Shown here: piece after piece, positions 3,847-63,632 of the stretch
How the letters are laid out: the number at the start of each line of letters is the position of its first letter
How positions within the stretch are numbered: the stretch's first letter is position 1
DNA from: a virus
Reading direction: 5' to 3' (one strand)
IMG/VR virus record: IMGVR_UViG_3300048838_001809
Length of the DNA stretch: 64,000 nt
Translations under genes and position numbers: made by a program
The notes under the pieces: model-generated
What the model was told of the DNA's origin: nothing
The model's input: the letters and a program-made list of their open reading frames with translations, nothing else
Databases searched by the model: none

Positions 3847-4566
3847 ATGGCTGTCGTATTCGACCAGACCATTAAGCGTCTGGTCCGTCTCGCCAAAGAG
3901 CACGACTCGATCCTCGTCAGCTACTCCGGCGGCAAGGATTCGCTGTGCGTGATGGACCTGTGCTGCTCTCTCTTCGCGCGCGTTGAAGCGTTTCACATGT
4001 TTTTCGTGCCGGGCCTGGCCCACGTCGAAGAACGCCTGGAGTACGCTCGCCAGCGATGGAAAATCGACATCCGCCAGTATCCGCACTGGGGCATGCTGCA
4101 ATGCCTCAAGCACGGCACCTACCGCTTCCCGGACCCCGCGTTCGCCTCGATGCCCGACCTGAATGTCCATGACATCGAGCGGCTGGCCCTCTCTGACGCC
4201 AAATGCTCGATCGTGGCCCATGGTGGCAAGATGTCCGATTCGCTCTGGCGTCGCCGGACGATGAAAGCGCTCTCGAAGTCTCACCAGGAACGCATCTATC
4301 CGATCGAGAAATGGAACAAGTGGCACGTTCTCGCCTATTTGCAATCCAAGAAAATCCCCGTCCCATCGTCGGACGGGGCAACTTCTGGCGGTCTGGGGTT
4401 GACGGTTTCGAGCGTACTGTGGCTATATGATTCCTTCCCGGAGGATTACGAGAAAATCCGGCTTGTCTATCCATTCGTTGAAGCAATTGTTAAGCGTCGT
4501 GATTGGTATGGAATTGGAACGCATGCAGCAGCAAAAGACCGTGCCCGTCCAGTACAGGCCGATTAA
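3847..4566 (+). CDS. PAPS reductase / PP-loop ATP pyrophosphatase family protein.
   Basis: SGGKDS PP-loop motif near the N-terminus. Phage proteins of this family are typically paired with a ParB-like nuclease. Start chosen downstream of the terminator; the track ORF starts at 3823. Confidence 0.7.
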   Translation: MAVVFDQTIKRLVRLAKEHDSILVSYSGGKDSLCVMDLCCSLFARVEAFHMFFVPGLAHVEERLEYARQRWKIDIRQYPHWGMLQCLKHGTYRFPDPAFASMPDLNVHDIERLALSDAKCSIVAHGGKMSDSLWRRRTMKALSKSHQERIYPIEKWNKWHVLAYLQSKKIPVPSSDGATSGGLGLTVSSVLWLYDSFPEDYEKIRLVYPFVEAIVKRRDWYGIGTHAAAKDRARPVQAD

Positions 4567-5083
4567 GCGGTTCCCTGGCTATAGGGCAGGCGATGATGGC
4601 TCTGTTTGGAGCTGCCGGAAAGTCAGGGGCAAAAAAGGTGGTGGCTGCGAATCTTATTTAAGTGATACGTGGCATCAGCTTCGTCCAATTAAAACATCAG
4701 GCGGGTACTACCGAGTCAGCCTGTGTCGCGATGGCAAGAAAATACTTTGTTTGGTTCATCGCCTTATTCTCGAAGCATTCGTTGGTCCGTGTCCGCCGGG
4801 TCAGGAGTGTCGTCATAAGGATGGCGATAAGTCCGACAATCGGTTAAGCGAAATCAAGTGGGGCACGCCAATGGAGAATTATCGAGATCGAATCAGGCAT
4901 AACACTCAGACTCGACACAACAAGGGCGAACTAAACGGCAGCGCCATTCTGACCACAGCTAAGGCGAGTGAGATTCGCCGCAAATATGCCGTTGGCGACA
5001 TGAGTTACGCAATGCTCGGCCGTGAGTTTGGTGTCAGTGCTGCAACGATCGCCAACGTAATCAGAGGCAGAACATGGAACTAA
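4508..5083 (+). CDS. HNH homing endonuclease.
   Basis: Motif 'HKDGDKSDNRLSEIKWGTPMEN' (HNH_3). The N-terminus 'FPGYRAGDDGSVWS' is NUMOD4-like. There is a C-terminal HTH-like tail. Local GC drops sharply over 4560-4960. Overlaps the 3' end of the upstream gene. Confidence 0.7.
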   Translation: MELERMQQQKTVPVQYRPIKRFPGYRAGDDGSVWSCRKVRGKKGGGCESYLSDTWHQLRPIKTSGGYYRVSLCRDGKKILCLVHRLILEAFVGPCPPGQECRHKDGDKSDNRLSEIKWGTPMENYRDRIRHNTQTRHNKGELNGSAILTTAKASEIRRKYAVGDMSYAMLGREFGVSAATIANVIRGRTWN

Positions 5084-6216: not shown

Positions 6217-6718
6217 CCCCCGCGCGCGCTTCACCGACCCCGATGGCCGCGGCACGGACGACTATCTCTACTCGAATTTTGAAATCATCACCACGCCCAA
6301 CGCTGGCCGTTCTGTGATCGCCCTGCGCGATTTTCTCCCGGACGAGCTGGTCATGCGAATCTACGGCCGGCTGATTCCAGACACCAAGCGATCGCCCTAT
6401 GGCTCGCATTACTGCATGGAACTGGACGATCATCGCATGATCCTGGAGCCCTACATGCCGGGGGGCCTGGTCAACCACTCCTGCTCGCCGAACTGCATCC
6501 AGAACACCAATCCCAACATCCCACACTGTTGGGAGTTGCGCGCTCTGTGCTTCATCGCTACCGGGCAGGAATTGTGCTACGACTACGGCTGGCCGTTTCA
6601 AGGGGAGTTCCCGAAATGTCACTGTGGCTCGTATAACTGCCGGGGCTACATTGTGTCCGAAGAGGACTTGCCGAAGTTGCTGGCCGCCAAGCGAAGGAAA
6701 AAGGCGAAGCGAAGATGA
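6194..6718 (+). CDS. SET-domain protein-lysine methyltransferase.
   Basis: SET signatures 'NHSCSPNC' and 'ELCYDYG', plus a post-SET 'CHCGSYNCRG'. A basic KKNNPR N-terminus and KRRKKAKRR C-terminus. An alternative start exists at 6164. Confidence 0.75.
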   Translation: MAKTKKNNPRARFTDPDGRGTDDYLYSNFEIITTPNAGRSVIALRDFLPDELVMRIYGRLIPDTKRSPYGSHYCMELDDHRMILEPYMPGGLVNHSCSPNCIQNTNPNIPHCWELRALCFIATGQELCYDYGWPFQGEFPKCHCGSYNCRGYIVSEEDLPKLLAAKRRKKAKRR

Positions 6719-6891
6719 TCGACTTGCTTTTGCGGATCAACACAAGACTCGGTGTGTTTGATCTGAATTCCGATCGTGGTCGCTGTGGTTTTTTCTACGC
6801 ACTAGGAATTGCAGTCGGTATCGCGGTTGGCACGTTCATCGTGTCGCCGTTTTTGATCTGCATGTTTATTTTGCAATCGAGGTCGCCGTGA
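6715..6891 (+). CDS. Small membrane protein, 58 aa. Below the ORF-track cutoff.
   Basis: ATGA overlap with the SET gene stop, and its stop overlaps the next GTG start. One TM helix (FYALGIAVGIAVGTFIVSPFLICMFIL). Confidence 0.3.
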   Translation: MIDLLLRINTRLGVFDLNSDRGRCGFFYALGIAVGIAVGTFIVSPFLICMFILQSRSP

Positions 6892-7103
6892 AAAACTGGT
6901 GCGATCAATGTCGGAGCAGCGGCACCATGCCGGACCCATCGGCCCGCTGGTGGCAGTTCTGGCGTCGCGTGCCATGCAAGGTATGTGGTGGTGATGGAAT
7001 CTCCAAGCCGCCTGGGTGGCCTGATCGCGAGGCAATGAAGTCACTCCGGCCGACTCCTTCGCCGCCGCCGCCGCCGATCAAGGTTTACCAGGGCAATGCG
7101 TGA
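6888..7103 (+). CDS. Small zinc-ribbon protein.
   Basis: GTG start. Two CxxC pairs (CDQC...CKVCGG) and a PPPPP tail. Confidence 0.4.
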   Translation: MKNWCDQCRSSGTMPDPSARWWQFWRRVPCKVCGGDGISKPPGWPDREAMKSLRPTPSPPPPPIKVYQGNA

Positions 7104-7633
7104 TGACCGAGCCGATCACCGACCCCCAGACTGGTCACAAGTATGTCACCACGAAGGACGGGAAGGTACGCACCCCCAAGTCCACGGCGAAGGATGTCAA
7201 CGAGCGGGTGGCTGCTTGCGCGGACATGCTGGCGAGGCACTTTCATAAGCATCAGATCAAGGCGATGCTGAAGCAGAAATACGGCGTGGGTGGTCGTCAG
7301 GCCGAAACGTACATTTCTCGCGCGAGAGATTATTTGCTATCCCTCGCCGACGAAGGCCCGCGTGAGCTTGTCGCCAACGTGCTCGCCTCGCTGCGAACCG
7401 TGATCCGGCAATCCGACTCTGGTATGGAAGTGATTGCCGCCAACGCCGAGATTTGCAAGCTGTTCGGGCTCTACAAGCCAGTCAAGATCGCCCCGACCAC
7501 GCCCGATGGAAGTCAACCGTACGCCCTCGCGGAGCGGGTGGCGCAATCACTCACAGATGAACAACTCCAATCGCTGTTCCTGTTGAAGCAACAGATCGAC
7601 AAGGCGCAGCAGATTGAACACAAGCCGGAATGA
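7100..7633 (+). CDS. Hypothetical protein.
   Basis: ATGA overlap with the upstream gene. Good GC3 bias. Confidence 0.5.
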   Translation: MMTEPITDPQTGHKYVTTKDGKVRTPKSTAKDVNERVAACADMLARHFHKHQIKAMLKQKYGVGGRQAETYISRARDYLLSLADEGPRELVANVLASLRTVIRQSDSGMEVIAANAEICKLFGLYKPVKIAPTTPDGSQPYALAERVAQSLTDEQLQSLFLLKQQIDKAQQIEHKPE

Positions 7634-7830
7634 CTATGCGTTGTGCCAACTGCGGCGCCAGGTGCAGCCGCGACGAACTAAAGCAGTGCGATGATTGCCT
7701 CGAATTCATCTGCGAGGCATGCTGCGCGGAGTTTCCGCATCACGATCCGCCGCACAATCGCTGCGGGGATTGCTACGAGCGGCTGGGGCCAAGGGAGTTA
7801 AGCAAGCGCAAGCACAAGCAATGCCGCTAA
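7630..7830 (+). CDS. Small Cys-rich zinc-binding protein.
   Basis: Multiple CxxC motifs (CANCGARC, CDDC, CEAC, CGDC). ATGA overlap. Confidence 0.4.
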   Translation: MTMRCANCGARCSRDELKQCDDCLEFICEACCAEFPHHDPPHNRCGDCYERLGPRELSKRKHKQCR

Positions 7831-8171
7831 CGAGTCGCCTGCTCCGTGGAGTCGCTGACACCAGGCTTGAGCGATTTTCTCACGGACCTACCGATTGCCC
7901 TGGCCCACGGCGAATCAATCCGTTCGCCGGCAATTTGCCCGCACACCGAGCAGCGATAGGGCATCGTTGAATAGGCATTCAGCGCTGCGTGCAAAATCCA
8001 GAACGGCAGCCACAGTCCGCACATCAAGAGCGCCAGCCCTAGGTGTAGTACGTGCGGAACTTCGTAGGTGTCGCGGGTGTGCAGCGACACCTGTTGACAC
8101 CGATAGCAATAACTCTGCTTCTGTTGGTGTGCCATTTCGTTCCCCTCCATTAAGTGCCGGAGCCACTGCAT
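7827..8171 (-). CDS. Zinc-ribbon membrane protein. It is the only minus-strand gene in the left 60 kb.
   Basis: CYRC...central TM helix...CSVCG. Both overlapping +strand ORFs are Arg/Ala-rich artefacts. Upstream is an AT-rich divergent intergenic region. Confidence 0.5.
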   Translation of the reverse strand: MQWLRHLMEGNEMAHQQKQSYCYRCQQVSLHTRDTYEVPHVLHLGLALLMCGLWLPFWILHAALNAYSTMPYRCSVCGQIAGERIDSPWARAIGRSVRKSLKPGVSDSTEQATR

Positions 8172-8342
8172 CGATTATACCTAACCCCGTTATCAGCAAC
8201 GATTAAAAAATCTTGTTGACAGTTTTGATAACAGTCGGCCATATTCTGCCCTCGCGACGGCGGCGACCAGCCGCGTTCGGGCGATCAAGGACAAAGCTTC
8301 CCGCCGCCGTCGCTTTCCTCCGCGTCCTAGGGGGCCAGTAAT
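8172..8342. promoter_or_regulatory. Divergent regulatory region with a sigma70-like promoter candidate and a 12-bp inverted repeat.
   Basis: TTGACA at about 8215, then 17 nt, then a catatt-like -10. Perfect inverted repeat gcgacggcggcg (8263-8274) / cgccgccgtcgc (8305-8316). AT-rich relative to its surroundings. Confidence 0.35.
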
Positions 8343-8759
8343 ATGGTCGATCTTCTCCTTGCTATCCGCCGCTACACGGCCTGGACCAACTCACCGAAGT
8401 ACACTCGGCATGCCGCGATTTCCGGTAAATTCCGACAGGCCATTGGCGTTGAAATCGCCAAGCTCCAGAATCAGCCGTCGCTCTCAAAAGACCTGGCCGC
8501 CAAGCTCGCCGCGCTCCGCGAGCTGCTGCACGAATCGCTGACCGATGAGCCGGCGGCCGTCAAGCAGATCGCCGCGATCGCCGAGCAGTTCGTGCTCCAG
8601 TTGCCCGAATCGCTCCAGCGCAGGCTGGCCGAGCCGGAGCCGGAGCAATCCAATCTGCCCGCCGAGACTGGCGATTTCATTCCGACCGAGTTCAGCTCGC
8701 CGCCGGAAGCACGCAATCCCTATCCAGGGTCGCTGCCGCGCAGGAATCACGATGGCTGA
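8343..8759 (+). CDS. Hypothetical protein.
   Basis: ORF with GC3 bias. First + gene after the divergent region. Confidence 0.55.
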   Translation: MVDLLLAIRRYTAWTNSPKYTRHAAISGKFRQAIGVEIAKLQNQPSLSKDLAAKLAALRELLHESLTDEPAAVKQIAAIAEQFVLQLPESLQRRLAEPEPEQSNLPAETGDFIPTEFSSPPEARNPYPGSLPRRNHDG

Positions 8760-9198
8760 CAGCAACATTCGCACGTTCATGGCCATTCCTGTTCGCGGGC
8801 CGTGCGGCGGCATCTATCACGGAGGGTTCGAGGAAATCATGGACGACCAAGCCGTCACGAAGTTCGACACCGGAGCCGTTCGCGGCAGCAGCCCCAAGGC
8901 TCGCCTCGATCTGATCAGCCCTGTCGGCCTGCGTCGCGTCGGCAATGCCTGTGCGGAAGGGGCCGTGAAGTACCCGCCGCACAACTGGAAAAAGGGCATG
9001 CCCGCCAGCGTGTTGATCAACCACGCGCTGGAGCATATCGCCAGCTATCTGGAAGGGAAGACGGAAGAGGACGATCTGGGTCATGCGATTTGGAACCTGA
9101 TGACGCTGTGCCACTTCGAGGAAAAAATGCCGCACCTGATCGACATCCCGGAGCGGCCGGAGTACGAGCACTACCTGAAAGCACAGTCGACTCAATGA
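8752..9198 (+). CDS. dATP/dGTP pyrophosphohydrolase-like (DUF5664-type) phage protein.
   Basis: 'KARLDLISPVGLRRVGNACAEGAVKYPPHNWKKG' resembles the conserved 'KPRYDLIPPEAL...GA.KYGD.NWEKG' N-terminal domain. ATGgcTGA overlap with the upstream gene. Confidence 0.45.
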   Translation: MADSNIRTFMAIPVRGPCGGIYHGGFEEIMDDQAVTKFDTGAVRGSSPKARLDLISPVGLRRVGNACAEGAVKYPPHNWKKGMPASVLINHALEHIASYLEGKTEEDDLGHAIWNLMTLCHFEEKMPHLIDIPERPEYEHYLKAQSTQ

Positions 9199-9494
9199 AC
9201 ATCCTCATCGCCCTCATCGCCGTCGTCATCGGAATCCAGATCGGCCTGGCCATTCAGCGAACAGGCTTCGCGCTGTTCTGCTCGCGCTGGTGGGTTTGCT
9301 TCGACGGCCGGAGCAAAGAAGTCTGGATCGATCGCACGAACTGGGCCTTGCCGCCGCTGGCGATCGTGCTCGACAAGTCGATGAAAGTCGGTGTCATCGG
9401 GCCATACGGCTCGGCCGACAAGGCGAACGAGCAGTGTGATCGCATCTATCGCAACCAAGTGAAGTTCGCCCGGCGGAAACAGGCGGCGGCCTGA
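9195..9494 (+). CDS. Small membrane protein.
   Basis: ATGA overlap. N-terminal TM helix (ILIALIAVVIGIQIGLAI). Confidence 0.45.
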   Translation: MNILIALIAVVIGIQIGLAIQRTGFALFCSRWWVCFDGRSKEVWIDRTNWALPPLAIVLDKSMKVGVIGPYGSADKANEQCDRIYRNQVKFARRKQAAA

Positions 9495-9538
9495 CCCTTA
9501 ACCCCTTTCCTCTTTCCTGAAACTCTAGGAGCACCCTC

Positions 9539-10945
9539 ATGTCCAACGATCTACTGAAAGCCCGCCTTGTTTGGGACGGCGGCGACGAAGTGCGAATTCC
9601 GCCAGAGATGGGCGTGCCGCGCAGCGATCAAATGCAGGGGACGGCGGCTGAGCGGCTGAGCGAGTTGGCAGGGCGAGTATGTTACGACTCTCTGGGCAAG
9701 GGCAGGCCGAGCTTTAGCCGATCAGGAGAGTTCAATAGCGCGGAGATCGCATCGAAACTAGACGTGATTGCCGAGTATCGGGAGCTGGGGGTGCAGTTTG
9801 TTGGCGTCGAGCACAATGGCTGCATGACGTGCCATGCGTTCGGTCGAGCAGATTCCAATCCATCGGCATTTGTGAACATAAAGGATGGCCGCTATCACGA
9901 CGCAGCAAACGGCGACAATCTGTCGCTGATCGAGTTCGCAATGAAGGCAGGCAAGTTCAGGAAATGGAGCGATGTCGCCGCCCATTTCGCACAAAAAGCC
10001 GGCGTGTCATGCAGCAGAGTTGAGGGCTACCACGACCACATCCTCGCCGTTGGCCACGGCAGCGTGTTGGAGCATTTCAATTTCACGATCGGCGTTCAGG
10101 GCTTCGATGCCGATTACGCTGCCTATCTGCTGATTAATCGTCCCGGCATTATCTTCCACAGCCACTGGCACAATGCCGATTTCAGAATAACCGTCAATCT
10201 TCGCGCGATACTCGAATGGCAATCCTTCGCCGACGAGTTCGGTAACCTTGACGACGAGTATCGAATTGATGCTCACAATGATCTTGGTCGTCTTCTCGCT
10301 GAGCTTGGCCATCAAGTTGCGCCACACATCATTAAGCGACCGGAGCAATCGTCGTCGACTTCGGCGATGATCATGCCGCCTGAAACTGACCACGAAAAGT
10401 GGATCTCCCTCTACCTCTCCGGCAGCCGCGGCTTCTCACACGAGCAAGTCCGACATGGCGACTTCACCGCGATCAGCCAGCGGAGTACGCGGTATGTGGA
10501 TGAAGATGGTTCGCCGTGGGTCGAGCATCCACTGATCACGGCATACATCAACGATGTGCATGCCGAAGACACAGCTATCCCGAGCTGTGCGGATGAAACG
10601 ATGAAGTCGGCACAGAACACTTACCGTCTGACCGTTCACGAGCTTGAGGCGTATCTGATCGACCGCAAGGTCGACAAGACTTCCGCCCGCAAGCAAGCCC
10701 GCGGCGCGGCACGCGGCTATCTCGGCAACGCACTGCAAACCGAAATGATCTTCTCCGCGTCCGTCAGTCAGTGGCGCAGGATGGTTCAACAGCGATGCTC
10801 CCGGCACGCCGATGCAGAGATACGGGAAGTCTATGTCCAGGTGGTTCGTGAGTTGCAAAAAAGCAGGTATGCAGACTCATTTCAGGACATCCGGTTAATC
10901 GACTCACCGGACGGCATCGGACAAGTGGCAGAGTTCGTGAAATGA
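9539..10945 (+). CDS. ThyX-like protein (FAD-dependent thymidylate synthase fold) with a non-canonical signature and an inserted CHC2-like zinc-finger segment.
   Basis: N-terminal 'AGRVCYDS' and 'SRGFSHEQVRHGDFTAISQRSTRYV' parallel the ThyX 'aRvCy.S' and 'RHR(X7)S...RY' motifs, but the third Arg is Gly and there is a one-residue insertion. Residues about 90-150 ('C..CHAFGRADSNPSAFVNIKDGRYHDAANGDNLSLIEF') resemble a primase-type zinc-binding element. Confidence 0.5.
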   Translation: MSNDLLKARLVWDGGDEVRIPPEMGVPRSDQMQGTAAERLSELAGRVCYDSLGKGRPSFSRSGEFNSAEIASKLDVIAEYRELGVQFVGVEHNGCMTCHAFGRADSNPSAFVNIKDGRYHDAANGDNLSLIEFAMKAGKFRKWSDVAAHFAQKAGVSCSRVEGYHDHILAVGHGSVLEHFNFTIGVQGFDADYAAYLLINRPGIIFHSHWHNADFRITVNLRAILEWQSFADEFGNLDDEYRIDAHNDLGRLLAELGHQVAPHIIKRPEQSSSTSAMIMPPETDHEKWISLYLSGSRGFSHEQVRHGDFTAISQRSTRYVDEDGSPWVEHPLITAYINDVHAEDTAIPSCADETMKSAQNTYRLTVHELEAYLIDRKVDKTSARKQARGAARGYLGNALQTEMIFSASVSQWRRMVQQRCSRHADAEIREVYVQVVRELQKSRYADSFQDIRLIDSPDGIGQVAEFVK

Positions 10946-11481
10946 AAATCATACGCTTGCCATCTGGCCATGAAGTGCTTGTTGATGATGCTGATTACGA
11001 TTGGCTTGCCAGCCTTCCCTGGCGACTTGCGGTTCGCAACAAGACATCCTACGCCCAAATGCAAGTCGGACGAAAAGGCCGCAGGGTTTACATGCACCGC
11101 ATGATCATGGGTGAGCCAGACTGCCTCGTGGATCATCGCAACCGCAATGGACTTGATAATCAGCGCCACAATCTTCGATTAGCTACACAGCCACAAAATC
11201 AGCACAATCGCGGGCCGGTTCTTGGAACGAGTTCGCGATTCAAGGGAGTGCGAAGACATTCGCAAAATAACTGCTGGGTGTCACATATCACGTTCAATAA
11301 AGTTCGCAAGCACCTAGGGACATTCGTAAGCGAAGAGGTTGCGGCACTGGCCTACGACCAAGCAGCCAGAGAGTTGGCTGGAGAATTTGCGAAACTAAAC
11401 TTTCCAGACGTAATTGACTATTCAATCGTCGCAGTGTCACGAGGAAAGATAGGGCGGCGACCAAAAGCATCAACCATTTAG
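10942..11481 (+). CDS. HNH-AP2 homing endonuclease.
   Basis: 'VDHRNRNGLDNQRHNLRLATQPQNQHN' (HNH) followed by 'SSRFKGVRRHSQNNCWVSHITFNKVRKHLGTFVSEEVAALAYDQAA' (AP2). AT-rich island. ATGA overlap with the ThyX-like gene. Confidence 0.75.
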   Translation: MKIIRLPSGHEVLVDDADYDWLASLPWRLAVRNKTSYAQMQVGRKGRRVYMHRMIMGEPDCLVDHRNRNGLDNQRHNLRLATQPQNQHNRGPVLGTSSRFKGVRRHSQNNCWVSHITFNKVRKHLGTFVSEEVAALAYDQAARELAGEFAKLNFPDVIDYSIVAVSRGKIGRRPKASTI

Positions 11482-11797: not shown

Positions 11798-12187
11798 GTG
11801 GATTACGACATCGAACGAGCGAAGCAAGAGCAGGCCGAGATCCGCAAGGCGTTCCGGGAGATATTCCCGCTTGCTGCCGAGAGTGATCTGCCGTGGGCAG
11901 CCTCGCACATCAAGAACTTCCTGCGGGACCGCATCAAGCGCGAAGTTCAAGAGGGCGTGTTTCATTTTCAATCTGCCATTGTTCGCGTGCTTTGCGAAAT
12001 CTCGCCACCGAAAACGCACGTCGTCGACATGGCCCGGATCGTCGTCGAGGCAGCTAGAGATGGTCGACGTTTTCAAGAGCAACTAGAGAGCGTCAAAAAA
12101 GAACGTGACGAGCTGCGTGACGCGCTGCGGGAGCGAATCAAACAACCCGAAAAGATTATTGAGGAAATCAAGAAAGACAAGCAATGA
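11798..12187 (+). CDS. Hypothetical protein.
   Basis: GTG start with AGGAGA RBS 6 nt upstream. C-terminal coiled-coil. Confidence 0.5.
   Translation: MDYDIERAKQEQAEIRKAFREIFPLAAESDLPWAASHIKNFLRDRIKREVQEGVFHFQSAIVRVLCEISPPKTHVVDMARIVVEAARDGRRFQEQLESVKKERDELRDALRERIKQPEKIIEEIKKDKQ
12097..12150 (+). repeat. Direct repeat copy 2, inside the 3' end of CDS 11798-12187.
   Basis: See copy 1. Confidence 0.5.
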
Positions 12188-12612
12188 AAAACTATATCGA
12201 GCAGGCACTGACCACCGAGGCCCCTATCACGCCGGAGCTAGCCAATCGCCTTATTACCGATGCTCGCGCCGTACATGCGATCTTTGGACTCGCGACTGAA
12301 ATCGGCGAACTGACCGACTCGTTCAAGCGCACGATCTTTTATGGCAAGCATGCCGACCGCACGAACATCGCCGAAGAGATTGGCGATGCGTTCTGGTATC
12401 TGGCCATCCTCTGCGATCACGTCGGCGTGAGCTTCGAGCAGTGCATGGTGGCCAACATCAACAAGCTCCGCGCTCGTTATCCGAATAAGTTCACAGAGCA
12501 CGATGCAGTGAATCGCGACCTGGGGAATGAGCGGGCGGTACTGGAGCGGCATGTGCCTGACGATTTGCAAGCAACGGAACCGCGAGCGAGTTCCGTTGCG
12601 AACGGACGCTAA
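12184..12612 (+). CDS. MazG-like nucleotide pyrophosphohydrolase.
   Basis: 'EEIGDAFWYLAIL' and '...NINKLRARYPNKF' match the all-alpha NTP-PPase (MazG) signatures. ATGA overlap. Confidence 0.7.
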   Translation: MKNYIEQALTTEAPITPELANRLITDARAVHAIFGLATEIGELTDSFKRTIFYGKHADRTNIAEEIGDAFWYLAILCDHVGVSFEQCMVANINKLRARYPNKFTEHDAVNRDLGNERAVLERHVPDDLQATEPRASSVANGR

Positions 12613-47067: not shown

Positions 47068-49161
47068 ATGTATAGACACCTACAGGACGACTGGTATCAG
47101 TGCGACACATGCGGGTCGCGCCGCCGCTCTCCGGTCGATCTATCGAGTATTCGTTGTCGCTGCGGCAGTACCCCATCTCTCCCCGAGACCACGACGGACA
47201 AAAAAAAGCCGTGCGGCGAGCCGTGCGATAATCGCGTCGTCAAATTGTTTGAGACGGCATGGGGTTTCGCTAAATCAATCGCCTATTGGACCGCACGCGG
47301 CTTTAAGACCACGACGCAAGAGCAGTACGAGGAGCGGCGGGCGATCTGTCGCTCCGGCCCGCATGGAAAGTGCCCCAGCGGACAGCTGGTGGTCACGTTG
47401 GGGATGGTCGAGCGGTGCGGCAAGTGCAAGTGCGTCGTCGCGCTCAAAGCAGGACTCGTGCAGAACGACGGCAAGAGCGACTGCCCGCTAGGACACTGGC
47501 CAGCGATTGAACTGGCGGCAGAAAGCGCAGGCGACGAAGACCAGTCGGAGCCGCTGGAGGATTGCCGGATCAAGCTGGTAACGCGCGAGCCAGCGCCATT
47601 TGAGTCAGCGCCATCGGAGACAGCCGTAGACCTCACCGAGAGAACGGTGTGCCTAACGATCCTTAAGGGGCTGGGCGATTCGATGTGCTTTCGCTCGGCG
47701 CTCATGCACCTGGCTCGCTTTCGTCCGCGATGGAAGGTTGACGTGTTGACACACGTTTATCATCGATCGCTCTTCCAAGGACTCTGTGAACGCGTCTTAG
47801 AGCAACCGCCAGACCATTCTCAATACGACGTATTGCACCAGCCTGGATTTATGAGGCCCAGGCAATGTTACGTGAAGGTGCCATGCAATACGACCCAATT
47901 GTTCCTGCTAAGCATTCTCGGCGTAACTCCGTCTGCCGAGTTGAGCACCTACGGGCAGTTGTCGCCCAGTGACCAAGAGGTCGAGTATGCCGATCGATGG
48001 CTGGCTCCATATGGAAATGTGGTGCTGATTCATCAGCGGGGCCGCAGCTTTCCGACCGCCAAGAATCCGCCCGGATCTACATGGGGACAGTTGACGCAGA
48101 AAGTCCGCGACATGGGCTACACGCCCGTCGTCGTCAATTTCGACGGAAATGCCGAGTTGCATGGCGCTGTCAGCCTAAGTGCCGGCAATTACCATCAGCC
48201 ACAACATGGAACGAGCCTGGCAGCCCTTATTAGTCGCTGCACGCTGTTTGTCGGGGTCGATTCTGGGCCGTTGCACGTCGCCGGCGCCACGGCGACGCCG
48301 ACCATTGGAGTGTGGCTCAATCATCATCCTGCACATAGCTATAACATTGCCGATAACGTCACCCACCTGGTTCCGAGAAACCACGTTCAATTCCTACCGC
48401 GCAAGAACCGAACTTTCGGCGGCCGGGTCTTCGATGACCACTATCGATACCGGATATACGACGACCTGGGCGGCGACCTGGCATCGACGGCCGAGAGGCT
48501 GCTGTCCGCCGGCGGGCCATCGCCCGATGGCGAGCTGGTGCGCGTCGACGGATCGTGGCTGCGCCGTCGGTGGAAAGCCGAAGACTTGTATATCTGGCGG
48601 GAGATTTTCGAGCAGGACGACTACCGCGTCCGCCAGCTTGGCTGGCGCCCGCAGTGCGTCATCGACATCGGGGCGCATTGCGGCTTCTTCACGCAGCTGG
48701 CTTCGCAGCTCTGGCCGTCCGCGGCGCTGATCGCCGTCGAGCCTGCCGAAGAGAACGTCGCCGTAGCGCATCGCAATTGCCCGCGAGCCAGCATCATCCA
48801 GGCTGCCTGCACCTATGACCCTGAGCCAATCCACTTGGAGGTCTCGCTAGGGACAAAGGAACACACCGGCGGCTGTCGCGTCAGTCAGCTTGGCAGAGTT
48901 GTTCCGCGTGTGACCATGGATGAGATTCTGTCGAAAACCGATTGCCATGACATCCTATTGAAGTTGGATTGTGAAGGCGGCGAGTTCTCGATCATCGAGC
49001 ACTGTCAGCAGATGCACCGCATCCGCACGATCGTCGGCGAATGGCACGATCGCAACCGGTTCATCAAGCTGGTTCGCCGGAAGCTCCCAGACTGGAAATT
49101 AACGATCTACCGCGACCATGAAATCGGACTGTTTCGCTTGGACCGACCATGCTCACCGTGA
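47068..49161 (+). CDS. Three-domain fusion: an N-terminal Zn-ribbon, a GT9 heptosyltransferase-like domain, and an FkbM-family SAM methyltransferase.
   Basis: 'YQCDTCGS...CRCGS' ribbon. 'LFVGVDSGPLHVAGATATPTIGVW' matches the GT9 signature. The C-terminal 'VIDIGAHCGFF...IAVEPAEENVAVAHRNC...LLKLDCEGGEFSII' matches FkbM (Methyltransf_21). Confidence 0.6.
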   Translation: MYRHLQDDWYQCDTCGSRRRSPVDLSSIRCRCGSTPSLPETTTDKKKPCGEPCDNRVVKLFETAWGFAKSIAYWTARGFKTTTQEQYEERRAICRSGPHGKCPSGQLVVTLGMVERCGKCKCVVALKAGLVQNDGKSDCPLGHWPAIELAAESAGDEDQSEPLEDCRIKLVTREPAPFESAPSETAVDLTERTVCLTILKGLGDSMCFRSALMHLARFRPRWKVDVLTHVYHRSLFQGLCERVLEQPPDHSQYDVLHQPGFMRPRQCYVKVPCNTTQLFLLSILGVTPSAELSTYGQLSPSDQEVEYADRWLAPYGNVVLIHQRGRSFPTAKNPPGSTWGQLTQKVRDMGYTPVVVNFDGNAELHGAVSLSAGNYHQPQHGTSLAALISRCTLFVGVDSGPLHVAGATATPTIGVWLNHHPAHSYNIADNVTHLVPRNHVQFLPRKNRTFGGRVFDDHYRYRIYDDLGGDLASTAERLLSAGGPSPDGELVRVDGSWLRRRWKAEDLYIWREIFEQDDYRVRQLGWRPQCVIDIGAHCGFFTQLASQLWPSAALIAVEPAEENVAVAHRNCPRASIIQAACTYDPEPIHLEVSLGTKEHTGGCRVSQLGRVVPRVTMDEILSKTDCHDILLKLDCEGGEFSIIEHCQQMHRIRTIVGEWHDRNRFIKLVRRKLPDWKLTIYRDHEIGLFRLDRPCSP

Positions 49162-49541
49162 TGACCAATGGCTGTTTTGACCTATTGCACGCCGGCCACG
49201 TCGACTTCCTGCGCCGCTGCCGACTGCTGGGCGATCACCTTGTCGTGGCGATCAACAGCGACCAATCGGTGCAAAGACTCAAAGGGTCGGGGCGGCCGAT
49301 CTACAGTCAGCACGAACGTATTTGCATCGTTTCCGCTTTGCGTTATGTAAGCGAAGTTCATGTGTTTGACACCGAAGAGGAGTTGTCGGAGTTGGTGAAG
49401 CGGATTCAACCTGACGTATTGGTCAAGGGGGGTGACTACGCCGGTCGCGACGTAACCGGGGCAGGGCATGCTCGGCGACTGGTCCTGTTGCCGCTCGTGC
49501 CAGGGCATTCAACCAGTCAGACGATCGCGAGGCTGCGATGA
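49149..49541 (+). CDS. D-glycero-beta-D-manno-heptose 1-phosphate adenylyltransferase-like, corresponding to HldE/RfaE domain II.
   Basis: 'GCFDLLHAGHVDFL...VVAINSDQSVQRLKGSGRPI...VLVKGGDY' is a cytidylyltransferase-fold signature. Confidence 0.7.
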   Translation: MLTVMTNGCFDLLHAGHVDFLRRCRLLGDHLVVAINSDQSVQRLKGSGRPIYSQHERICIVSALRYVSEVHVFDTEEELSELVKRIQPDVLVKGGDYAGRDVTGAGHARRLVLLPLVPGHSTSQTIARLR

Positions 49542-50074
49542 GGCGTGCGTTTTTTGTTTGCGGACCTGAATCGAGCGGCAATCGCCTCATGGTTTCCATG
49601 CTGGTCGATGCCGGCTGTTGGGGCCGGGGGAAAATCGATCAACCCATCGACGGGTCGCTGCCAGATTACCCGATCGTCAAACCTGAGCCGCAGCCGGATC
49701 GCCTGGCGTTTTATCGCTCTTTTCCGCATGGGGGACATTGGCCGAATTTCATGCAGATCGTCAGTAACTTGCGGGCCTGGGGTTATCGGGACACCACTGT
49801 CCTGGTCATGGTCCGCGATCAATACGCCATTGAGCGCAGTCAGGTTCGCGCTGGCCATGTCAGCGACCTGAATCACGCGCGACAAAACACTACACGGGCA
49901 TACAAAGAGATTTTCTTTGGCGTGACTCGCCTCCGGCTGCCGTTTGTCATCGTGTCCTACGCGCGGCTGGGAGTGCCGGAATACCGCCAATGGATCACCG
50001 AGACACTGCGACTTCCTAAAGCACCAACGATTGAGTGGACGAATGAAGACACCAAGTATTACGGCCAAGTGTGA
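49538..50074 (+). CDS. P-loop protein, sulfotransferase-like.
   Basis: 'FFVCGPESSGNRLM' P-loop at the N-terminus. ATGA overlap. Confidence 0.35.
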   Translation: MRRAFFVCGPESSGNRLMVSMLVDAGCWGRGKIDQPIDGSLPDYPIVKPEPQPDRLAFYRSFPHGGHWPNFMQIVSNLRAWGYRDTTVLVMVRDQYAIERSQVRAGHVSDLNHARQNTTRAYKEIFFGVTRLRLPFVIVSYARLGVPEYRQWITETLRLPKAPTIEWTNEDTKYYGQV

Positions 50075-50984
50075 TGTGGACGCCATCTTGGACTCGATTC
50101 GCGGGGTCCAGATTCAGGTGTGCGGCGACACGCTCGTCGATCTGTATCTGCATCTGGCGAATCCGCGTGCATCCAAGCGCAATGCGCAGCATGTGTCCTG
50201 CGATCTGATTCGCAAGGCAACGATCCCCGGCGGGGCTGCCAACGTCGCCTGCTACGCCGCCGCGCTGGGGGCTCGCGTGGAGTTTCACTCGATCTTCTTC
50301 GCCGCTGCCCATGAGCCGGTCGACTACCTGGAGAGCATCGAGAATCTTTCGCTGCGATTGATCTACACTAAAGACTGGCGCAATCCGGTCAAAACGCGAT
50401 CGGTCATTGGTTCCGACGTGCGGATGCAAGGCAGCTACGAACCGGACGGTCTGGTTCCCGCCTTGTTGTCGGAACAGCTCGTCGATCAAGTCTTAGGCAT
50501 GGATGTCAAGACGATCGCTCTGGCCGATTATGGGCGAGGGGCCGTGAATTACCGGCAGGCTCGGCGACTCTGCGAGAGCGGCAATCAGGTGCTGGTTGAT
50601 CCGCACAAGCGCACCGAATGGTCGCGGTACGACGGGGCGCATTGCGTGAAGGGAAGTCATCTGTTTTTCGCAGAGGACTACGGGCAATCCGCCTGCTCGC
50701 CAATTCGCATCATCACCCACGCGGAACAAGGATCGCAGCTCTGGAGGACAGGCCATGCGTCGCCGGTATGGATTCCAGCGATTTCAACACGGGTCGCCGA
50801 TACGACCGGCGCCGGTGACTGCTATCTGGCGGCGCTGGCGTGTTGCACTGCGGCCGGCGTCCCAACTTTTGAAGCATGTCAGTTCGCGAGTGTGGTGGCG
50901 TCAATGAGCGTCGAGCGGATTGGCACGGAGCCGATCTATCCGCATGAAATCAGGGATTGGGCGAGCACGGTGGCATGTTCGTAA
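50043..50984 (+). CDS. PfkB-family sugar kinase, corresponding to the HldE/RfaE domain I heptose-7-phosphate kinase.
   Basis: 'DTTGAGDCYLAAL' PfkB signature. The N-terminus 'VQIQVCGDTLVDLYL' is consistent. Confidence 0.65.
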   Translation: MKTPSITAKCDVDAILDSIRGVQIQVCGDTLVDLYLHLANPRASKRNAQHVSCDLIRKATIPGGAANVACYAAALGARVEFHSIFFAAAHEPVDYLESIENLSLRLIYTKDWRNPVKTRSVIGSDVRMQGSYEPDGLVPALLSEQLVDQVLGMDVKTIALADYGRGAVNYRQARRLCESGNQVLVDPHKRTEWSRYDGAHCVKGSHLFFAEDYGQSACSPIRIITHAEQGSQLWRTGHASPVWIPAISTRVADTTGAGDCYLAALACCTAAGVPTFEACQFASVVASMSVERIGTEPIYPHEIRDWASTVACS

Positions 50985-51787
50985 GCGGCCAGGGCCAGCC
51001 GCTATCGCTGGCCAATCTGTATCGCAATGGCCAGGCATTTTTGTTGCTGTCTGGACCTAGCGCAAAACAGCTCGATCTTTCGCTGCTAACGCGGCGAGGC
51101 TGCTACGTCATGGGCGTGAACAATTCGCCCGCCCTGGTTCGCTGCAATTCGATGATCTACGTCGATCGCGCCTGGAAGATTCACGATGCGATCTGGCTCG
51201 ATCCGGCAGCGATGAAGTTCGTGCCGCAAACGCAGCTCGATTGTGGTATCCGCCGCCAGACGCCAAACGGGCCGGCTTATCCGGCCGCTCCGATCGTCGC
51301 TGGCACCCTGCCAGGGGTCGTTGGCTACGCGCGCAATGATCACTTTCGGCCGGCAGTGTGGATCGAGGAGGCGTCGGTCAACTGGGGGCACAACGACGTG
51401 CGAGGGGGCACTTACCCCTATTGTAAGGACGTACTGTTCGCGGCCCTCAAGGTGTTGTACGTGCTGGGCTTTCGCACGATCTACCTGTTGGGCTGCGACT
51501 TTTCCATGCGCGCTGACCGGCCCTACGCATTTGACGTGGCGCTGGGCCAGCACCACGCCGAGTGGTACGAGCACGCCAATAACAGCATCTACAAAAAGAT
51601 GGCCCAAATGCTGGCCGACCTGAAACCTCACTTCGATTCCGCCGGGCTGAAAATTTTCAATTGCAACCAAAAATCTGGGTTGACGGTTTTTGAATCATGC
51701 TCTTACAACGCCGCCATCGGTGCGGCTTCCGGGGGTATTCAGCAAGGGTTGCTGGACGCCAGGGGCTGGTACGAACTAAACGACTAG
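50975..51787 (+). CDS. DUF115 / Maf-like (motility-associated-factor glycosyltransferase family) protein.
   Basis: 'AFLLLSGPSAKQLDLSLL...CYVMGVNNSPALVRCNSMIYVDRAW' resembles the DUF115 'GPSL...vi.vN.a....PD..v..D' pattern. Confidence 0.4.
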   Translation: MFVSGQGQPLSLANLYRNGQAFLLLSGPSAKQLDLSLLTRRGCYVMGVNNSPALVRCNSMIYVDRAWKIHDAIWLDPAAMKFVPQTQLDCGIRRQTPNGPAYPAAPIVAGTLPGVVGYARNDHFRPAVWIEEASVNWGHNDVRGGTYPYCKDVLFAALKVLYVLGFRTIYLLGCDFSMRADRPYAFDVALGQHHAEWYEHANNSIYKKMAQMLADLKPHFDSAGLKIFNCNQKSGLTVFESCSYNAAIGAASGGIQQGLLDARGWYELND

Positions 51788-51812
51788 CAGTCGATCGAGG
51801 GGCACGGAGCCC

Positions 51813-52550
51813 ATGCAGGACTGGACTCTCATTCTGGCAGTGGACGCCGAACACGCGCGCGAACTTCAATTGTCCTGGCCGACGTGGCGAGCGCACCGGC
51901 CGGAGATTATGGAGCATCCGCTGCTGGTCATGCTTGATACGTCAAGTTGTGGACCCAGCACGCTCGACATCATCGGCATCGATCATCCGCATGTGACGTT
52001 TGCGAGCTGGCCGCCGCGCAGGTTTGGTTCGTTTCCAAACCAGCGAGCCAAGATGCTGTGGTCATTCGTGGCGGCGGCCGACTACATCCAGACTCCGTAC
52101 TATCTCAAGCTCGACACGGATGTCATCGCCCGCGAGCCGTCGCAGTGGTACTCCGACTGGTGGTTCAAGCGGAACTATTCTTTCATCGCGCCGCGCTGGG
52201 GATACACCAAGCCTGCCAACGCCATCGAGCAGCTTGAAGCCTGGGCTAACCGCATCAAATTGGGTGAAGAGTTGGTTGATCCGGGGTTTGCTCGCCATGG
52301 CGATCGCGTCATGCACAAGCGAATCACGTCCTGGATGTTCTTCGGGCAGACCAACTGGACTCGTAGCATGGCTGCGATCGCCGCCAAGCACCCGCCGCCC
52401 ATCTATTCGCACGACACGTTTCTCTGGTTCTGTGCCGTCCGCACTGGAGCGCACTTCATGCCGATCAGCGCTCGCGGAAACGGCTGGGAGCACGTTCCGC
52501 CATTCAAGCTGGAGCGAGCCGCACAGGAGGCGTTGACATGCCGGAGCTAA
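51813..52550 (+). CDS. Glycosyltransferase-like (GT-A) protein.
   Basis: 'YYLKLDTDV' DxD-type motif. Confidence 0.4.
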   Translation: MQDWTLILAVDAEHARELQLSWPTWRAHRPEIMEHPLLVMLDTSSCGPSTLDIIGIDHPHVTFASWPPRRFGSFPNQRAKMLWSFVAAADYIQTPYYLKLDTDVIAREPSQWYSDWWFKRNYSFIAPRWGYTKPANAIEQLEAWANRIKLGEELVDPGFARHGDRVMHKRITSWMFFGQTNWTRSMAAIAAKHPPPIYSHDTFLWFCAVRTGAHFMPISARGNGWEHVPPFKLERAAQEALTCRS

Positions 52551-53173
52551 ACGCCGACTGCCCGCGGTTCGAAGTGCTGGTGCGAAGTGAGTTCCTTTAC
52601 AACTTCCAGAAGGGCATGGGCGAGTACGCGCCCGGCATCTGTCACTCGATCACGTCCATTCCAGGCCGAGCGCTGGGCTTCAACGTCCTATTGAACAACG
52701 GAGCCCATATCGGCCGACTGCCGATTCACGCGCTGGCGCACCGCCGCGACCGTGTGGCCAGCGTGCCGCATGATGACCCTTGGCGCCGGCAGCTCTGGGA
52801 TTGCTTCTCGGCGAATGTCGCTGTGGTCGAGTACGCCTATCTGTCTGGCATGCGCTGCCGCGTCAGCCTGGCCGATCGCAAAGTGATCGGCGGCGTCTAC
52901 ATGTTTACGGTTGACTACTGGGGTTCGCCCGCCGCTGAATCCGCTGGGAATGCTGGCTGGAAGTGTCATCACCTGATCGCGCTGGATGACGGCACGTTTG
53001 CCGCGCAACCGAACAACCGCATCTGCCTGTTCGAGCCCTCTTGCGTTACGCCATTCGAGCAGCCGCCGGACTACAAGACGATGGAGCGTGTCTGGCGCGT
53101 CGAGGACGGCGCTCGCTGGCGCACGTCCGATGACAGCGCCATGTTCTACGGCGTTCAGGAGCTGAATCAATGA
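52538..53173 (+). CDS. Hypothetical protein within the glycan island.
   Basis: Overlapping start-stop coupling on both sides. Confidence 0.45.
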   Translation: MPELNADCPRFEVLVRSEFLYNFQKGMGEYAPGICHSITSIPGRALGFNVLLNNGAHIGRLPIHALAHRRDRVASVPHDDPWRRQLWDCFSANVAVVEYAYLSGMRCRVSLADRKVIGGVYMFTVDYWGSPAAESAGNAGWKCHHLIALDDGTFAAQPNNRICLFEPSCVTPFEQPPDYKTMERVWRVEDGARWRTSDDSAMFYGVQELNQ

Positions 53174-53934: not shown

Positions 53935-53936
53935 GC

Positions 53937-62873: not shown

Positions 62874-63085
62874 AACTGGTCCCTCTCACGAAAGCCTGCG
62901 GGGACCATCCGTGGGGCATCATGCGACTTGTTCCTTCACCATCCTTTGGCAGTCCACTTCCATAGTGGGCGGCCGTCCATCGCGACCGACTAACCCTATT
63001 CAGTAACACTCGACGAACAGCAGCGGCGAAAACTCAGGGAAAACCCTGAGCCGAACAAGCATCTTCTAGGGGGCAGCTTTGAGCA

Positions 63086-63574: not shown

Positions 63575-63602
63575 CCAGTTGAAGTGTACGGCCATCCATG
63601 AC

Positions 63603-63632
63603 GTACTAGGTTCGAGTCCTAGTCGGGGAGCC
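63603..63632 (+). other. Partial tRNA 3' end (T-arm and 3' acceptor strand). Candidate att core.
   Basis: ctagg-TTCGAGT-cctag T-arm, then tcgggga, then g, then cc. No matching 5' acceptor strand or anticodon arm lies upstream. Adjacent to the integrase. Confidence 0.4.

Follow-up and report, generated by a model that had tools for sequence, protein, structure and literature searches.

The open reading frame (ORF) at positions 9539–10945 of a 64,000-nucleotide stretch of viral DNA (IMG/VR record IMGVR_UViG_3300048838_001809; the whole stretch is referred to here as the window) raises the question of whether a protein resembling the flavin-dependent thymidylate synthase ThyX, with an altered active-site signature, still converts dUMP to dTMP or has turned to another reaction. 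The sequence-only reading of the window had suggested that it could be a diverged pyrimidine-modifying enzyme, for example one transferring a different one-carbon group. On balance, the sequences and models lead us to favour a working flavin-dependent thymidylate synthase that makes dTMP from dUMP and belongs to a mostly viral clade of long ThyX; it would have a rebuilt flavin site, and its embedded primase domain would act as a tether to ssDNA or the replisome. The virus is a tailed phage of at least 174 kb, and portal, capsid and prohead-protease genes are found in the window. A megablast search of 15 kb against deposited phages returned no close relative, and tblastn against deposited phages gave only matches below 30% identity.

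The ATG of the ORF is preceded 7 nt upstream by AGGAG, and the encoded protein can be divided as follows, using Mycobacterium tuberculosis (Mtb) ThyX as reference:

9539–10945, + strand: whole ORF, a long-type ThyX with an embedded domain resembling the primase zinc-binding domain (ZBD); 468 aa, ATG start.
9539–9718, + strand: ThyX N-terminal part, residues 1–60 (beta1, alpha1, 'AGRVCYDS...GKGRPSF'), matching Mtb ThyX 29–54 and the Thy1 profile from position 8.
9719–10024, + strand: lineage-specific insert, residues 61–162, in the alpha1-alpha2 loop, with a primase ZBD (CHC2-type) fold lacking the second Cys pair.
10025–10099, + strand: ThyX alpha2-beta2, residues 163–187, 'GYHDHILAVGHGSVLEHFNFTIGVQ', matching Mtb ThyX 58–83 and holding H173, S175, E178 and H179.
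10100–10402, + strand: family-wide middle block, residues 188–288, holding N200-R201-P202-G203 and T218-x-N220-x-R222 and ending where a second beta2-like strand begins.
10403–10945, + strand: ThyX catalytic C-terminal part, residues 289–468 and stop, matching Mtb ThyX 78–238 (E 1e-15) and Thy1 profile 62–187.

The protein is indeed about twice the size of ThyX, as had been noticed from the sequence, and this doubling is due to the insert (~102 aa) and the middle block (~101 aa) together. The insert had been put at about 60 residues, which falls short of its true length, and the middle block had been overlooked. Residues 1–60 are conserved across the long-ThyX family.

The ThyX-like nature of the protein is borne out both by its predicted structure, which has the ThyX alpha/beta fold, and by its alignment to PF02511 (Pfam Thy1; 95.9 bits for a cut-off of 24.8). 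It scores below the cut-off of the NCBIfam thyX equivalog (TIGR02170; 67.9 versus 87.9 bits), for which three other long-family members score 54 to 76. The two blocks on which the initial assignment was based are present, 'AGRVCYDS' at residues 44–51 and 'SRGFSHEQVRHGDFTAISQRSTRYV' at residues 296–320, and the HMMER alignment confirms the two reported changes in the signature. R305-H306-G307 pairs with Mtb R95-H96-R97, so that the third Arg is replaced by Gly, and the gap to the Ser is of 8 residues instead of the canonical 7; the ORF thus reads RHG-(X)8-S where RHR-(X)7-S is expected:

10451–10495, + strand: altered ThyX signature R305-H306-G307-DFTAISQR-S316-T-R318-Y319, with R305, H306, S316 and R318 invariant in the family.

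The order of the core elements is the same as in ThyX/FDTS (PF02511; Mtb structures 2af6 and 3gwc; short viral ThyX at loci L050 and L052), and the ORF has in common with these enzymes every dUMP contact, the Arg-His that opens RHR, the S71/H69-type residues and its place among phage genes for nucleotide metabolism and replication. It differs from them, besides its size, its third RHR residue and its TIGR02170 score, by the loss of T-x-N-x-R (N188/R190) from the C-terminal strand and by the presence of a ~100-aa block (with T-x-N-x-R and N-R-P-G) and of a ~100-aa domain in the alpha1-alpha2 loop.

These changes, apart from the loop domain, are for the most part shared with a large family. The long ThyX has more than 1000 metagenomic protein matches, only nine full-length matches, each on a MAG contig, among 185,579 species genomes, and 35 matched loci in IMG/VR, of which about 22 are long-family members. 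The neighbourhoods of the family resemble phage genomes, and the long clade is mostly viral; our literature search found neither a paper on it nor a characterised member. It is most closely related to short viral ThyX of the ordinary kind, in which both RHR and NxR are present. Motif states were counted in 119 aligned long-family sequences, which share about 50% identity with the ORF on average (46–63%). Position 307 is G in 94 of them, K in 17 and R in 8, so that RHG is the majority state of the family and is not peculiar to this ORF, while position 309 is F (71), R (35) or W (11). An 8-residue gap is likewise seen in ThyX of the ordinary short type, viral and CPR, in which RHR is intact.

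The roles of the ThyX residues were taken from previous studies (PMC6514825, PMC11940539, PMC5003785). The dUMP-binding set of Mtb ThyX (R87, R95, Q103, S105, R107, R172 and R199) corresponds to R297, R305, Q314, S316, R318, R392 and R419, all invariant in 119/119 long-family members, and the Arg side chains directed toward O4 and O2 would fit uracil and not cytosine. S175 (Mtb S71) and H179 are likewise invariant, H173 (Mtb H69) is kept in 116/119, and the equivalent of the Mtb lid residue Y108 is Phe in half of the family. The RHR residues hydrogen-bond the FAD phosphates and ribityl, and the third Arg is absent from the list of dUMP contacts (PMC6514825). Among the FAD residues (Mtb R95, H96, R97, S71 and R190), R97 is replaced by Gly and R190 by Ser in the ORF, whereas R305, H306 and S175 are kept and invariant in the family. 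Since the lost residues bind FAD phosphates or ribityl and not the nucleotide, their replacement points to a rewiring of flavin binding rather than to a change of substrate or product.

The middle block offers candidate residues for such a rewiring, as it holds a second version of the motif that has disappeared from the C-terminal strand:

10190–10204, + strand: T218-V-N220-L-R222, relocated copy of the canonical FAD-contacting T-x-N-x-R (T in 118/119, N in 117/119, R in 118/119).
10754–10768, + strand: S406-A-S408-V-S410, at the canonical T-x-N-x-R position, where the motif is lost; it pairs with Mtb T186-G-N188-Y-R190.

At the canonical site, position 408 is S in 93 members and N in 25, and position 410 is Arg in none of the 119 (A in 82, S in 12 and G in 10, among other states). 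Every long-family member has the block, and the nearest short viral ThyX lack it. Between 113 and 118 of the 119 sequences preserve its motifs, and the block is modelled with pLDDT values of 88–98. In the predicted structure, a strand ends and a helix starts at T218-x-N220-x-R222, as at the canonical motif. Judging from these sequence features, T-x-N-x-R and N-R-P-G of the middle block may substitute for the lost FAD-binding Arg.

Regarding its origin, part of the C-terminal strand and helices of ThyX was probably duplicated internally, with the middle block as what remains of the copy. When it was compared by hhalign with a short-ThyX profile, the only match was colinear with the canonical TxNxR strand and two helices (54 columns, pairwise P=0.005). 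The same comparison with the C-terminal half of the long family itself gave no match (probability <1%), and Pfam Thy1 did not recognise the block, the N-terminal constructs of eight members being covered only at profile positions 8–71. As the search for a repeat within the family gave nothing, the duplication is suggested by the short-ThyX match together with the register of the motif and secondary structure.

A related arrangement exists in crAss-like phages, whose ThyX (for example QOR59694.1 of cr128_1 and WCF57542.1 of PhiCrAssBcn2) are annotated as thymidylate synthases and uncharacterised. Where the ORF has its middle block, between beta2 and a second beta-strand, they too carry additional sequence, with N-x-P and T-T-N-F-R, and their canonical C-terminal motif is degenerate (TGFINDW). 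They share about 24% identity with the ORF and their homologous block is shorter (~65 aa); unlike the ORF, they keep RHR with the 7-residue spacing and have no primase-domain insert. The picture we propose is that of a long clade with a ~100-aa addition between beta2 and the SR...RH helix, in which T-x-N-x-R has gone from its first position (Mtb N188/R190) and most members have also given up the last RHR Arg (Mtb R97); the flavin site would be rebuilt from middle-block residues, with dUMP recognition and methyl-transfer chemistry unchanged.

The insert in the alpha1-alpha2 loop raises a distinct question, that of whether it contributes anything to the enzyme. Its proposed likeness to a CHC2 zinc-binding element held for the fold, since the helices and five-stranded sheet of the ZBD are predicted, but not for the full set of zinc ligands (C-x2-H ... 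C-x2-C), of which only the first half has left a trace:

9821–9835, + strand: C95-M-T-C98-H99, remnant of the first half of the CHC2 zinc site; C98 is kept in 130 of 146 domain homologues.

The residue after C98 is His in 64 of these 146 homologues and Arg in 45, and a second Cys pair was found neither in the insert nor in any member of its domain family; in a manual alignment to DnaG, D121 and N124 appear to occupy the corresponding positions. Compared with DnaG-type ZBDs (CHC2, PF01807; 1d0q, 2au3), the family keeps one Cys and one His of C-H-C-C, and the additional C95 of the ORF is not conserved. The Twinkle N-terminal domain, which is poor in zinc ligands, is another point of comparison. 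The insert stays below the Pfam CHC2 threshold (14.6 bits, cut-off 24.9, E=0.029, profile positions 17–94 of 98), none of 58 insert homologues matches this profile at E<=0.01, and the profile of the domain family has no match at E<=10 among PDB sequences. It is tied to DnaG ZBDs by structure-based comparison only, and in a manual comparison with the CHC2 consensus shares with them PS[AF] and Y-H/K motifs and a hydrophobic core. A word-indexed search with the insert alone gave no candidates, and its homologues were found by an exhaustive phmmer search. They occupy the usual place of the ZBD, N-terminal to Toprim primase-helicase modules, with 26 Toprim-family matches among the 58 (counted per Pfam family, so that some members may be counted twice). 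In the ORF, the domain is instead embedded in the ThyX loop of a metabolic enzyme and does not head a primase. An intein or other mobile-element origin was rejected based on the ZBD fold, the gene-like composition and the lack of similarity to Hint or endonuclease domains.

The simplest alternative is that the enzyme is an ordinary ThyX and that the insert is a neutral passenger, left by recombination in a phage with many homing endonucleases and tolerated by a permissive loop. The loop is variable, as it takes 4 to 38 aa in relatives, some with small CxxC...CxxC knuckles, and the primase-domain insert is confined to one lineage. Moreover, at least five HNH genes lie within ~70 kb, and an HNH-AP2 gene abuts the ORF, with a homologue that also adjoins the ThyX gene at locus L005:

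10942–11481, + strand: homing-endonuclease-like gene (HNH and AP2); its start and the stop of ThyX overlap in an ATGA.

When the full-length protein is modelled, the insert also comes out with low confidence and no modelled contacts. However, it folds confidently when modelled alone from its own alignment, and it retains all 4 invariant and all 17 near-invariant residues of its domain family. Its composition equals that of the rest of the gene, indicating that it was not picked up very recently from a foreign source. The identical ThyX protein is carried by 11 contigs, which also speaks against a passenger, although this very identity prevents selection on the insert from being measured. Taken together, these data make a neutral insertion unlikely in our view. 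We rather propose that the embedded primase domain may tether ThyX to ssDNA or the replisome. It comes from a form of the ZBD that has no second Cys pair and is often found in phage Toprim primase-helicases, and it would bind ssDNA or dock onto the phage primase-helicase, bringing dTMP synthesis to the replication fork. No primase-helicase, with this domain or otherwise, was found in the window or in the 8 kb upstream.

The second alternative is the one that the altered signature had initially suggested, namely that the long clade is neofunctionalised and that its modified flavin site has altered which cofactor or reductant is used, or what becomes of the methylene intermediate, yielding a non-canonical pyrimidine such as 5-hydroxymethyl-dUMP, or methylating UMP as PolB does, for DNA modification. 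The changed signature and the score under the thyX equivalog cut-off are in agreement with it, as are the glycosyltransferase, sugar-activation and methyltransferase genes found elsewhere in the window, a dCMP-type ThyA-like enzyme that accompanies one relative, and the two NTP pyrophosphohydrolases that flank the ThyX gene, both correctly recognised as nucleotide-metabolism neighbours from the sequence:

8752–9198, + strand: all-alpha NTP pyrophosphohydrolase (PF18909, dGTP_diPhyd_N; E=2.3e-17).
12184–12612, + strand: MazG-type NTP pyrophosphohydrolase (E=1.4e-7).

On the other hand, the changed residues touch the FAD phosphates and ribityl and neither the nucleotide nor the transferred carbon, the uracil, phosphate and sugar contacts are all invariant, and the nearest relatives are ordinary ThyX. 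The crAss-like ThyX with the relocated motif keep RHR and are each the sole thymidylate-synthase-type annotation within 3 kb on either side. In the neighbourhoods inspected, no hydroxymethyl-pyrimidine kinase or DNA glycosyltransferase recurs beside family members, and we know of no ThyX-fold hydroxymethylase. Around about 45 family members, inspected out to 10 kb, no second thymidylate synthase appeared, nor was there another in the window or in the 8 kb upstream; the only two ThyA-like neighbours of the family both have Asp at the E. coli N177 position, typical of dCMP-specific enzymes. At loci L064 and L065, the long ThyX gene is preceded by a thymidylate kinase gene at a distance of 10 bp, and such a gene is also nearby at L038 and L008. 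This adjacency concerns a few loci only and would be compatible with a 5-substituted dUMP product too.

As for PolB (4p5a), this ThyX paralogue methylates UMP/dUMP in polyoxin biosynthesis and, unlike the ORF, has the canonical size and FAD site. Its specificity is set by Loop 1 and Loop 2 tyrosines (PMC5003785), Tyr124 and Tyr126, which together with Tyr99 form the UMP gate, and the ORF is nearer to Mtb-type and short viral ThyX than to PolB. A different pyrimidine or one-carbon chemistry, as advanced in the sequence-only reading, is thus not supported, given the FAD-binding role of RHR (PMC6514825), the dUMP contacts conserved in 119/119, the thymidylate kinase near some members and the lack of a second synthase within 10 kb of about 45 of them, and we consider neofunctionalisation distinctly improbable. 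The combined version, in which the relocated T-x-N-x-R and the lost third Arg would alter the cofactor or methylene fate to give a non-canonical 5-substituted pyrimidine nucleotide delivered by the primase domain at the fork, seems to us very improbable.

Finally, a catalytically dead ThyX-derived scaffold or regulator could be imagined from the loss of the FAD-binding arginines (equivalents of Mtb R97 and R190) and the missed thyX equivalog cut-off, but it is extremely improbable, since a pseudoenzyme is not expected where nucleotide-binding and flavin-ring contacts are invariant across 119 sequences (R297, R305, H306, S175, S316, R318, R392 and R419) and where the middle block offers a conserved replacement motif. 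The most likely function, as far as it can be deduced from conservation and modelling, is the ordinary synthesis of dTMP from dUMP by an enzyme whose flavin site would be rewired.

ThyX is a drug target whose active site is built from three subunits of a homotetramer. If structurally confirmed, the long viral clade, with the related crAss-like arrangement, would provide a case of an inter-subunit cofactor site rebuilt within one chain. Many real ThyX would then also escape the "RHR(X)7S" signature and the NCBI equivalog model. Should the enzyme merely make dTMP, the biological consequence would be ordinary. Within the long clade, a primase-type ZBD in a surface loop is unique to the phage lineage of the ORF. 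The presence of this fold inside a nucleotide-synthesis enzyme would physically link dTMP production to the replisome, a connection between dNTP synthesis and replication long under discussion for the dNTP-synthesising complexes of phages.

The open reading frame at 9539-10945 (+ strand) is real, as the sequence-only reading had it: it starts with ATG, encodes 468 aa and has AGGAG 7 nt upstream. Its product matches Pfam Thy1 (PF02511; 95.9 bits, E=3.5e-27), PHROG thymidylate-synthase families and the PDB ThyX sequences of M. tuberculosis (Mtb) and C. glutamicum (E~5e-18). The HMMER alignment with Mtb ThyX falls into three pieces (query residues 32-59 to 29-54, 163-190 to 58-83 and 289-459 to 78-238), so that the query carries two added blocks of ~100 aa and not one of ~60. 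The primase-type block noticed previously is present, at ~102 aa rather than ~60, while a second block of ~100 aa had been overlooked. The altered signature was read correctly: the counterpart of Mtb R95-H96-R97 is R305-H306-G307, with a spacing to Ser of 8 residues versus 7.

The query retrieved 1054 matches from 5.8 billion proteins. The best 120 of the 1054 are 346-428 aa long (one reaches 726 aa), are 42-61% identical over ~65% of the query and mostly carry "RHGDFTAISQRSTR[YF]", with RHG in 94, RHK in 18 and RHR in 8; the altered signature is a family trait, not peculiar to the query. This family is characterized by a middle block at query residues 188-288. Only 9 full-length relatives were found among 185,579 species genomes, every one on a MAG contig (Pirellulales, Planctomycetaceae, Phycisphaerae, Pseudobdellovibrionaceae, Eisenbacteria, Myxococcota). 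In IMG/VR, 35 loci were matched, ~22 with members of this long family and the remainder with short canonical ThyX, and the neighbourhoods of four long-family members on 74-544 kb contigs resemble phage replication and nucleotide modules. Taken together, these observations indicate that the long family is predominantly viral. Its members score 54-76 bits, below the NCBI thyX equivalog cut-off of 87.9, and our literature search found no paper describing the long clade or characterising crAss ThyX. Additional sequence appears to be fused to the long-family protein P0103 (726 aa, a called gene product), and loci L010, L033/L034, L036 and L038 hold long-family ORFs of 722-992 aa, lengths that come from longest-ORF extension and may be overestimates. 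Separately, canonical ThyX occurs in ORFs of 587-746 aa (longest-ORF extension, starts approximate) in the Candidatus Fervidibacter / Armatimonadota loci L015, L017, L020 and L025, with the ThyX similarity in two blocks ~300 aa or more apart and, in L017 and L020, upstream non-ThyX sequence; these look like intein-containing thyX genes.

The closest canonical relatives of the long family are short (250-270 aa) viral ThyX (loci L049-L057), which share with it "AGRTCYDS", "GHGSVLEH", "SRG.THELVRHR", "SQRSTRYVDE", "ARKQARGAARG" and "PDG.G" and in which neither RHR nor the T/S-x-N-x-R strand motif has been lost. The 8-residue spacing to Ser also occurs in several of them and in one CPR ThyX, making the query's "one-residue insertion" unremarkable. 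Compared with these short proteins, the ~100-aa block of the long family sits precisely at the junction of beta2 and "G.SRG"; it contains N200-R201-P202-G203 and T218-x-N220-x-R222...W227 and is followed by a strand, "W[IV]S..." (query 288-296), that repeats beta2, whereas the canonical motif positions are gone from the C-terminal strand.

Residue states in 119 long-family sequences (query numbering)
R297, R305, H306, Q314, S316, R318, R392, R419, S175, H179: 119/119
H173: 116/119
Position 307 (Mtb R97): G 94, K 17, R 8
Position 309: F 71, R 35, W 11
Position 408 (Mtb N188): S 93, N 25
Position 410 (Mtb R190): Arg in none
Block residues: N200 113, R201 118, T218 118, N220 117, R222 118

In ThyX, the hydrogen bonds to the FAD AMP phosphate, ribityl and FMN phosphate come from RHR in one subunit (A) and from S71 and R190 in another (B), and dUMP is held by R95, R199, R87, S105 and R107 (PMC6514825). 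Read against the counts, these roles identify the altered residues as flavin-anchoring and leave the nucleotide contacts untouched. The invariant contacts include the arginines that hydrogen-bond the uracil carbonyls in structures of ThyX and its paralogue PolB. The Arg stabilising reduced flavin at N1/C2=O, T. maritima R78 (PMC11940539), corresponds to the invariant R305, and the folate-stacking T. maritima H53 to the nearly invariant H173 (our own alignment). Loci L064/L065 have a thymidylate kinase gene 10 bp upstream of ThyX, and L038 and L008 have one within ~2 kb. The window, its 8-kb upstream flank and the DNA up to 10 kb from ~45 relatives contain no second thymidylate synthase. The long family also nests beside ordinary viral ThyX. 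Together with the two ThyA-like neighbours described below, these results point to ordinary dTMP synthesis as the probable function. ThyX identity, altered signature and primase-type domain survive from the sequence-only reading, but the altered one-carbon chemistry it proposed finds no positive support, since the dUMP contacts are invariant (119/119) and the changed residues anchor flavin.

In two ThyA-like neighbours, the residue matching E. coli ThyA Asn177 is Asp (PYD instead of PFN):
L046 12898-13938, ThyA-like gene within ~8 kb of a long-family ThyX gene
L055 2230-2991, ThyA-like gene within ~8 kb of a short ThyX gene
In the ThyA family, Asp at this position marks dCMP-specific enzymes, which suggests that both may be dCMP hydroxymethylase or methylase-type enzymes.

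Pfam does not recognise the middle block as Thy1, and the block has no match in the long family's own C-terminal half. The block's single top alignment to a short canonical ThyX profile (54 columns, pairwise P=0.005) runs colinear with the canonical T-x-N-x-R strand plus the next two helices. In the model, a strand ends at T218/N220 and a helix begins at R222, likewise at S406/S408 and S410, 188 residues further on. A shorter block (~65 aa, "N-x-P...T-T-N-F-R") occupies the same site in crAss-like phage ThyX (294-309 aa, annotated as flavin-dependent thymidylate synthase), where the C-terminal strand is degenerate ("TGFINDW") and RHR intact:
L070 2929-3813, crAss-like ThyX gene (cr128_1)
L071 2929-3858, crAss-like ThyX gene (PhiCrAssBcn2)
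A moderately strong inference is that the flavin-anchoring motif was copied by a partial internal duplication of ThyX; the original would then have decayed, and the third Arg of RHR later, within the long clade.

The identical protein is present on 11 metagenomic contigs, the longest of 174 kb. The window encodes portal, prohead-protease-like, major capsid and tape-measure proteins, is rich in small co-directional ORFs and has several HNH endonuclease genes; its source is a large tailed phage, with no DNA-level similarity to any deposited phage. The two pyrophosphohydrolase genes flanking ThyX are those named previously; they are listed here with other genes of the region.
8752-9198, all-alpha NTP pyrophosphohydrolase (PF18909 dGTP_diPhyd_N)
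10942-11481, HNH+AP2 gene (HNH_3 homing-endonuclease-like), start overlapping the ThyX stop codon
12184-12612, MazG, all-alpha NTP pyrophosphohydrolase
4508-5083 and 56199-56774, and L068 (flanking DNA) 1-602 and 6879-7616, other HNH_3 homing-endonuclease-like genes
47245-58140 (in L069), sugar-activation/transfer cluster following the tape-measure gene: GT9 heptosyltransferase-like protein fused to Methyltransf_21 (638 aa), cytidylyltransferase-like protein (130 aa), PfkB kinase (313 aa), Methyltransf_23 (421 aa), GT4 (335 aa), another methyltransferase and a weak phosphoribosyltransferase match
62043-64000, faint phage-integrase match (- strand), GerE-type regulator and large serine recombinase (Resolvase/Recombinase/Zn_ribbon_recom; - strand, continuing past the window end)
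PF18909 is the N-terminal domain of dATP/dGTP diphosphohydrolase and is presumably MazZ-like; the ~72 kb covered showed no gene resembling adenylosuccinate synthetase (PurZ). At least 5 HNH_3 genes fall within ~72 kb, an unusually high density, and a homologue of the HNH+AP2 gene adjoins the long ThyX gene in locus L005. The PfkB and cytidylyltransferase-like pair resembles a split HldE (ADP-heptose synthesis), with virion or DNA as the possible target of the cluster. The genes at 62043-64000 may point to a temperate phage or mark the boundary of a module.

The primase-type insert (residues 61-162) lies in the alpha1-alpha2 loop, a recurrent insertion hotspot that measures 4-10 aa in 74 family members, 12-38 aa in 38 and 107 aa in the query only. 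Proteins P0010, P0030 and P0042 have small CxxC...CxxC knuckles (33-37 aa loops) exactly at this site, and a 25-aa loop, 'PSFTQEVVTGADPHTGEQ...', is common to ~10 long-family members. The best Pfam match of the insert alone is weak (CHC2 zinc finger PF01807, profile positions 17-94/98; E=0.029, 14.6 bits versus a cut-off of 24.9). Exhaustive phmmer against 1.84 billion representatives gave 442 homologues, of which 116 reach E<=1e-10; identity goes up to 52%, and almost every homologue occupies residues ~10-110 of a protein of 650-1000 aa. These proteins are primase-helicases: among 58, 19 match Toprim_2 and up to 7 more other Toprim models, with AAA_25 in 15, DUF5906 in 13, Pox_D5 in 6, D5_N in 3 and DUF3987 in 3. 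The domain family has a PSA motif and one conserved Cys (query C98; 130/146), followed by His (64) or Arg (45), with no second Cys pair (n=146), and the 4 invariant and 17 near-invariant residues are all present in the query. Its profile found nothing among PDB sequences; with its own alignment the domain models well (pLDDT 87, pTM 0.78). The "primase-type zinc-finger-like" description is therefore right at the fold level, although the domain cannot bind zinc through the canonical four ligands. Tandem arrays of the ZBD-like beta-sheet core occur in P0124 (2239 aa) and P0166 (1403 aa), each with eight separate matches to the central part of the domain (residues ~39-93 of the insert).

The insert is also 31-32% identical (E 1e-11) to the cysteine-free, ZBD-like N-terminus of a 953-aa primase-helicase-like protein (6658-9519) on L004, a Pirellulales MAG contig, ~1 kb downstream of the long ThyX gene that L004 itself carries. 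This protein matches PHROG DNA-primase families and has no Pfam match. The two domains fused in the query are thus neighbours in a related element. GC and GC3 of the insert equal those of the rest of the gene. In DnaG, T7 gp4 and Twinkle, the primase ZBD binds template ssDNA and interacts with primase and helicase modules. By analogy, an intact ZBD-like domain carried by ThyX on a permissive surface loop could anchor dTMP synthesis at ssDNA or at the phage primase-helicase. A partner primase was looked for in the accessible 72 kb and not found. The main alternative to such tethering is that the insert is a neutral passenger in an endonuclease-rich genome.
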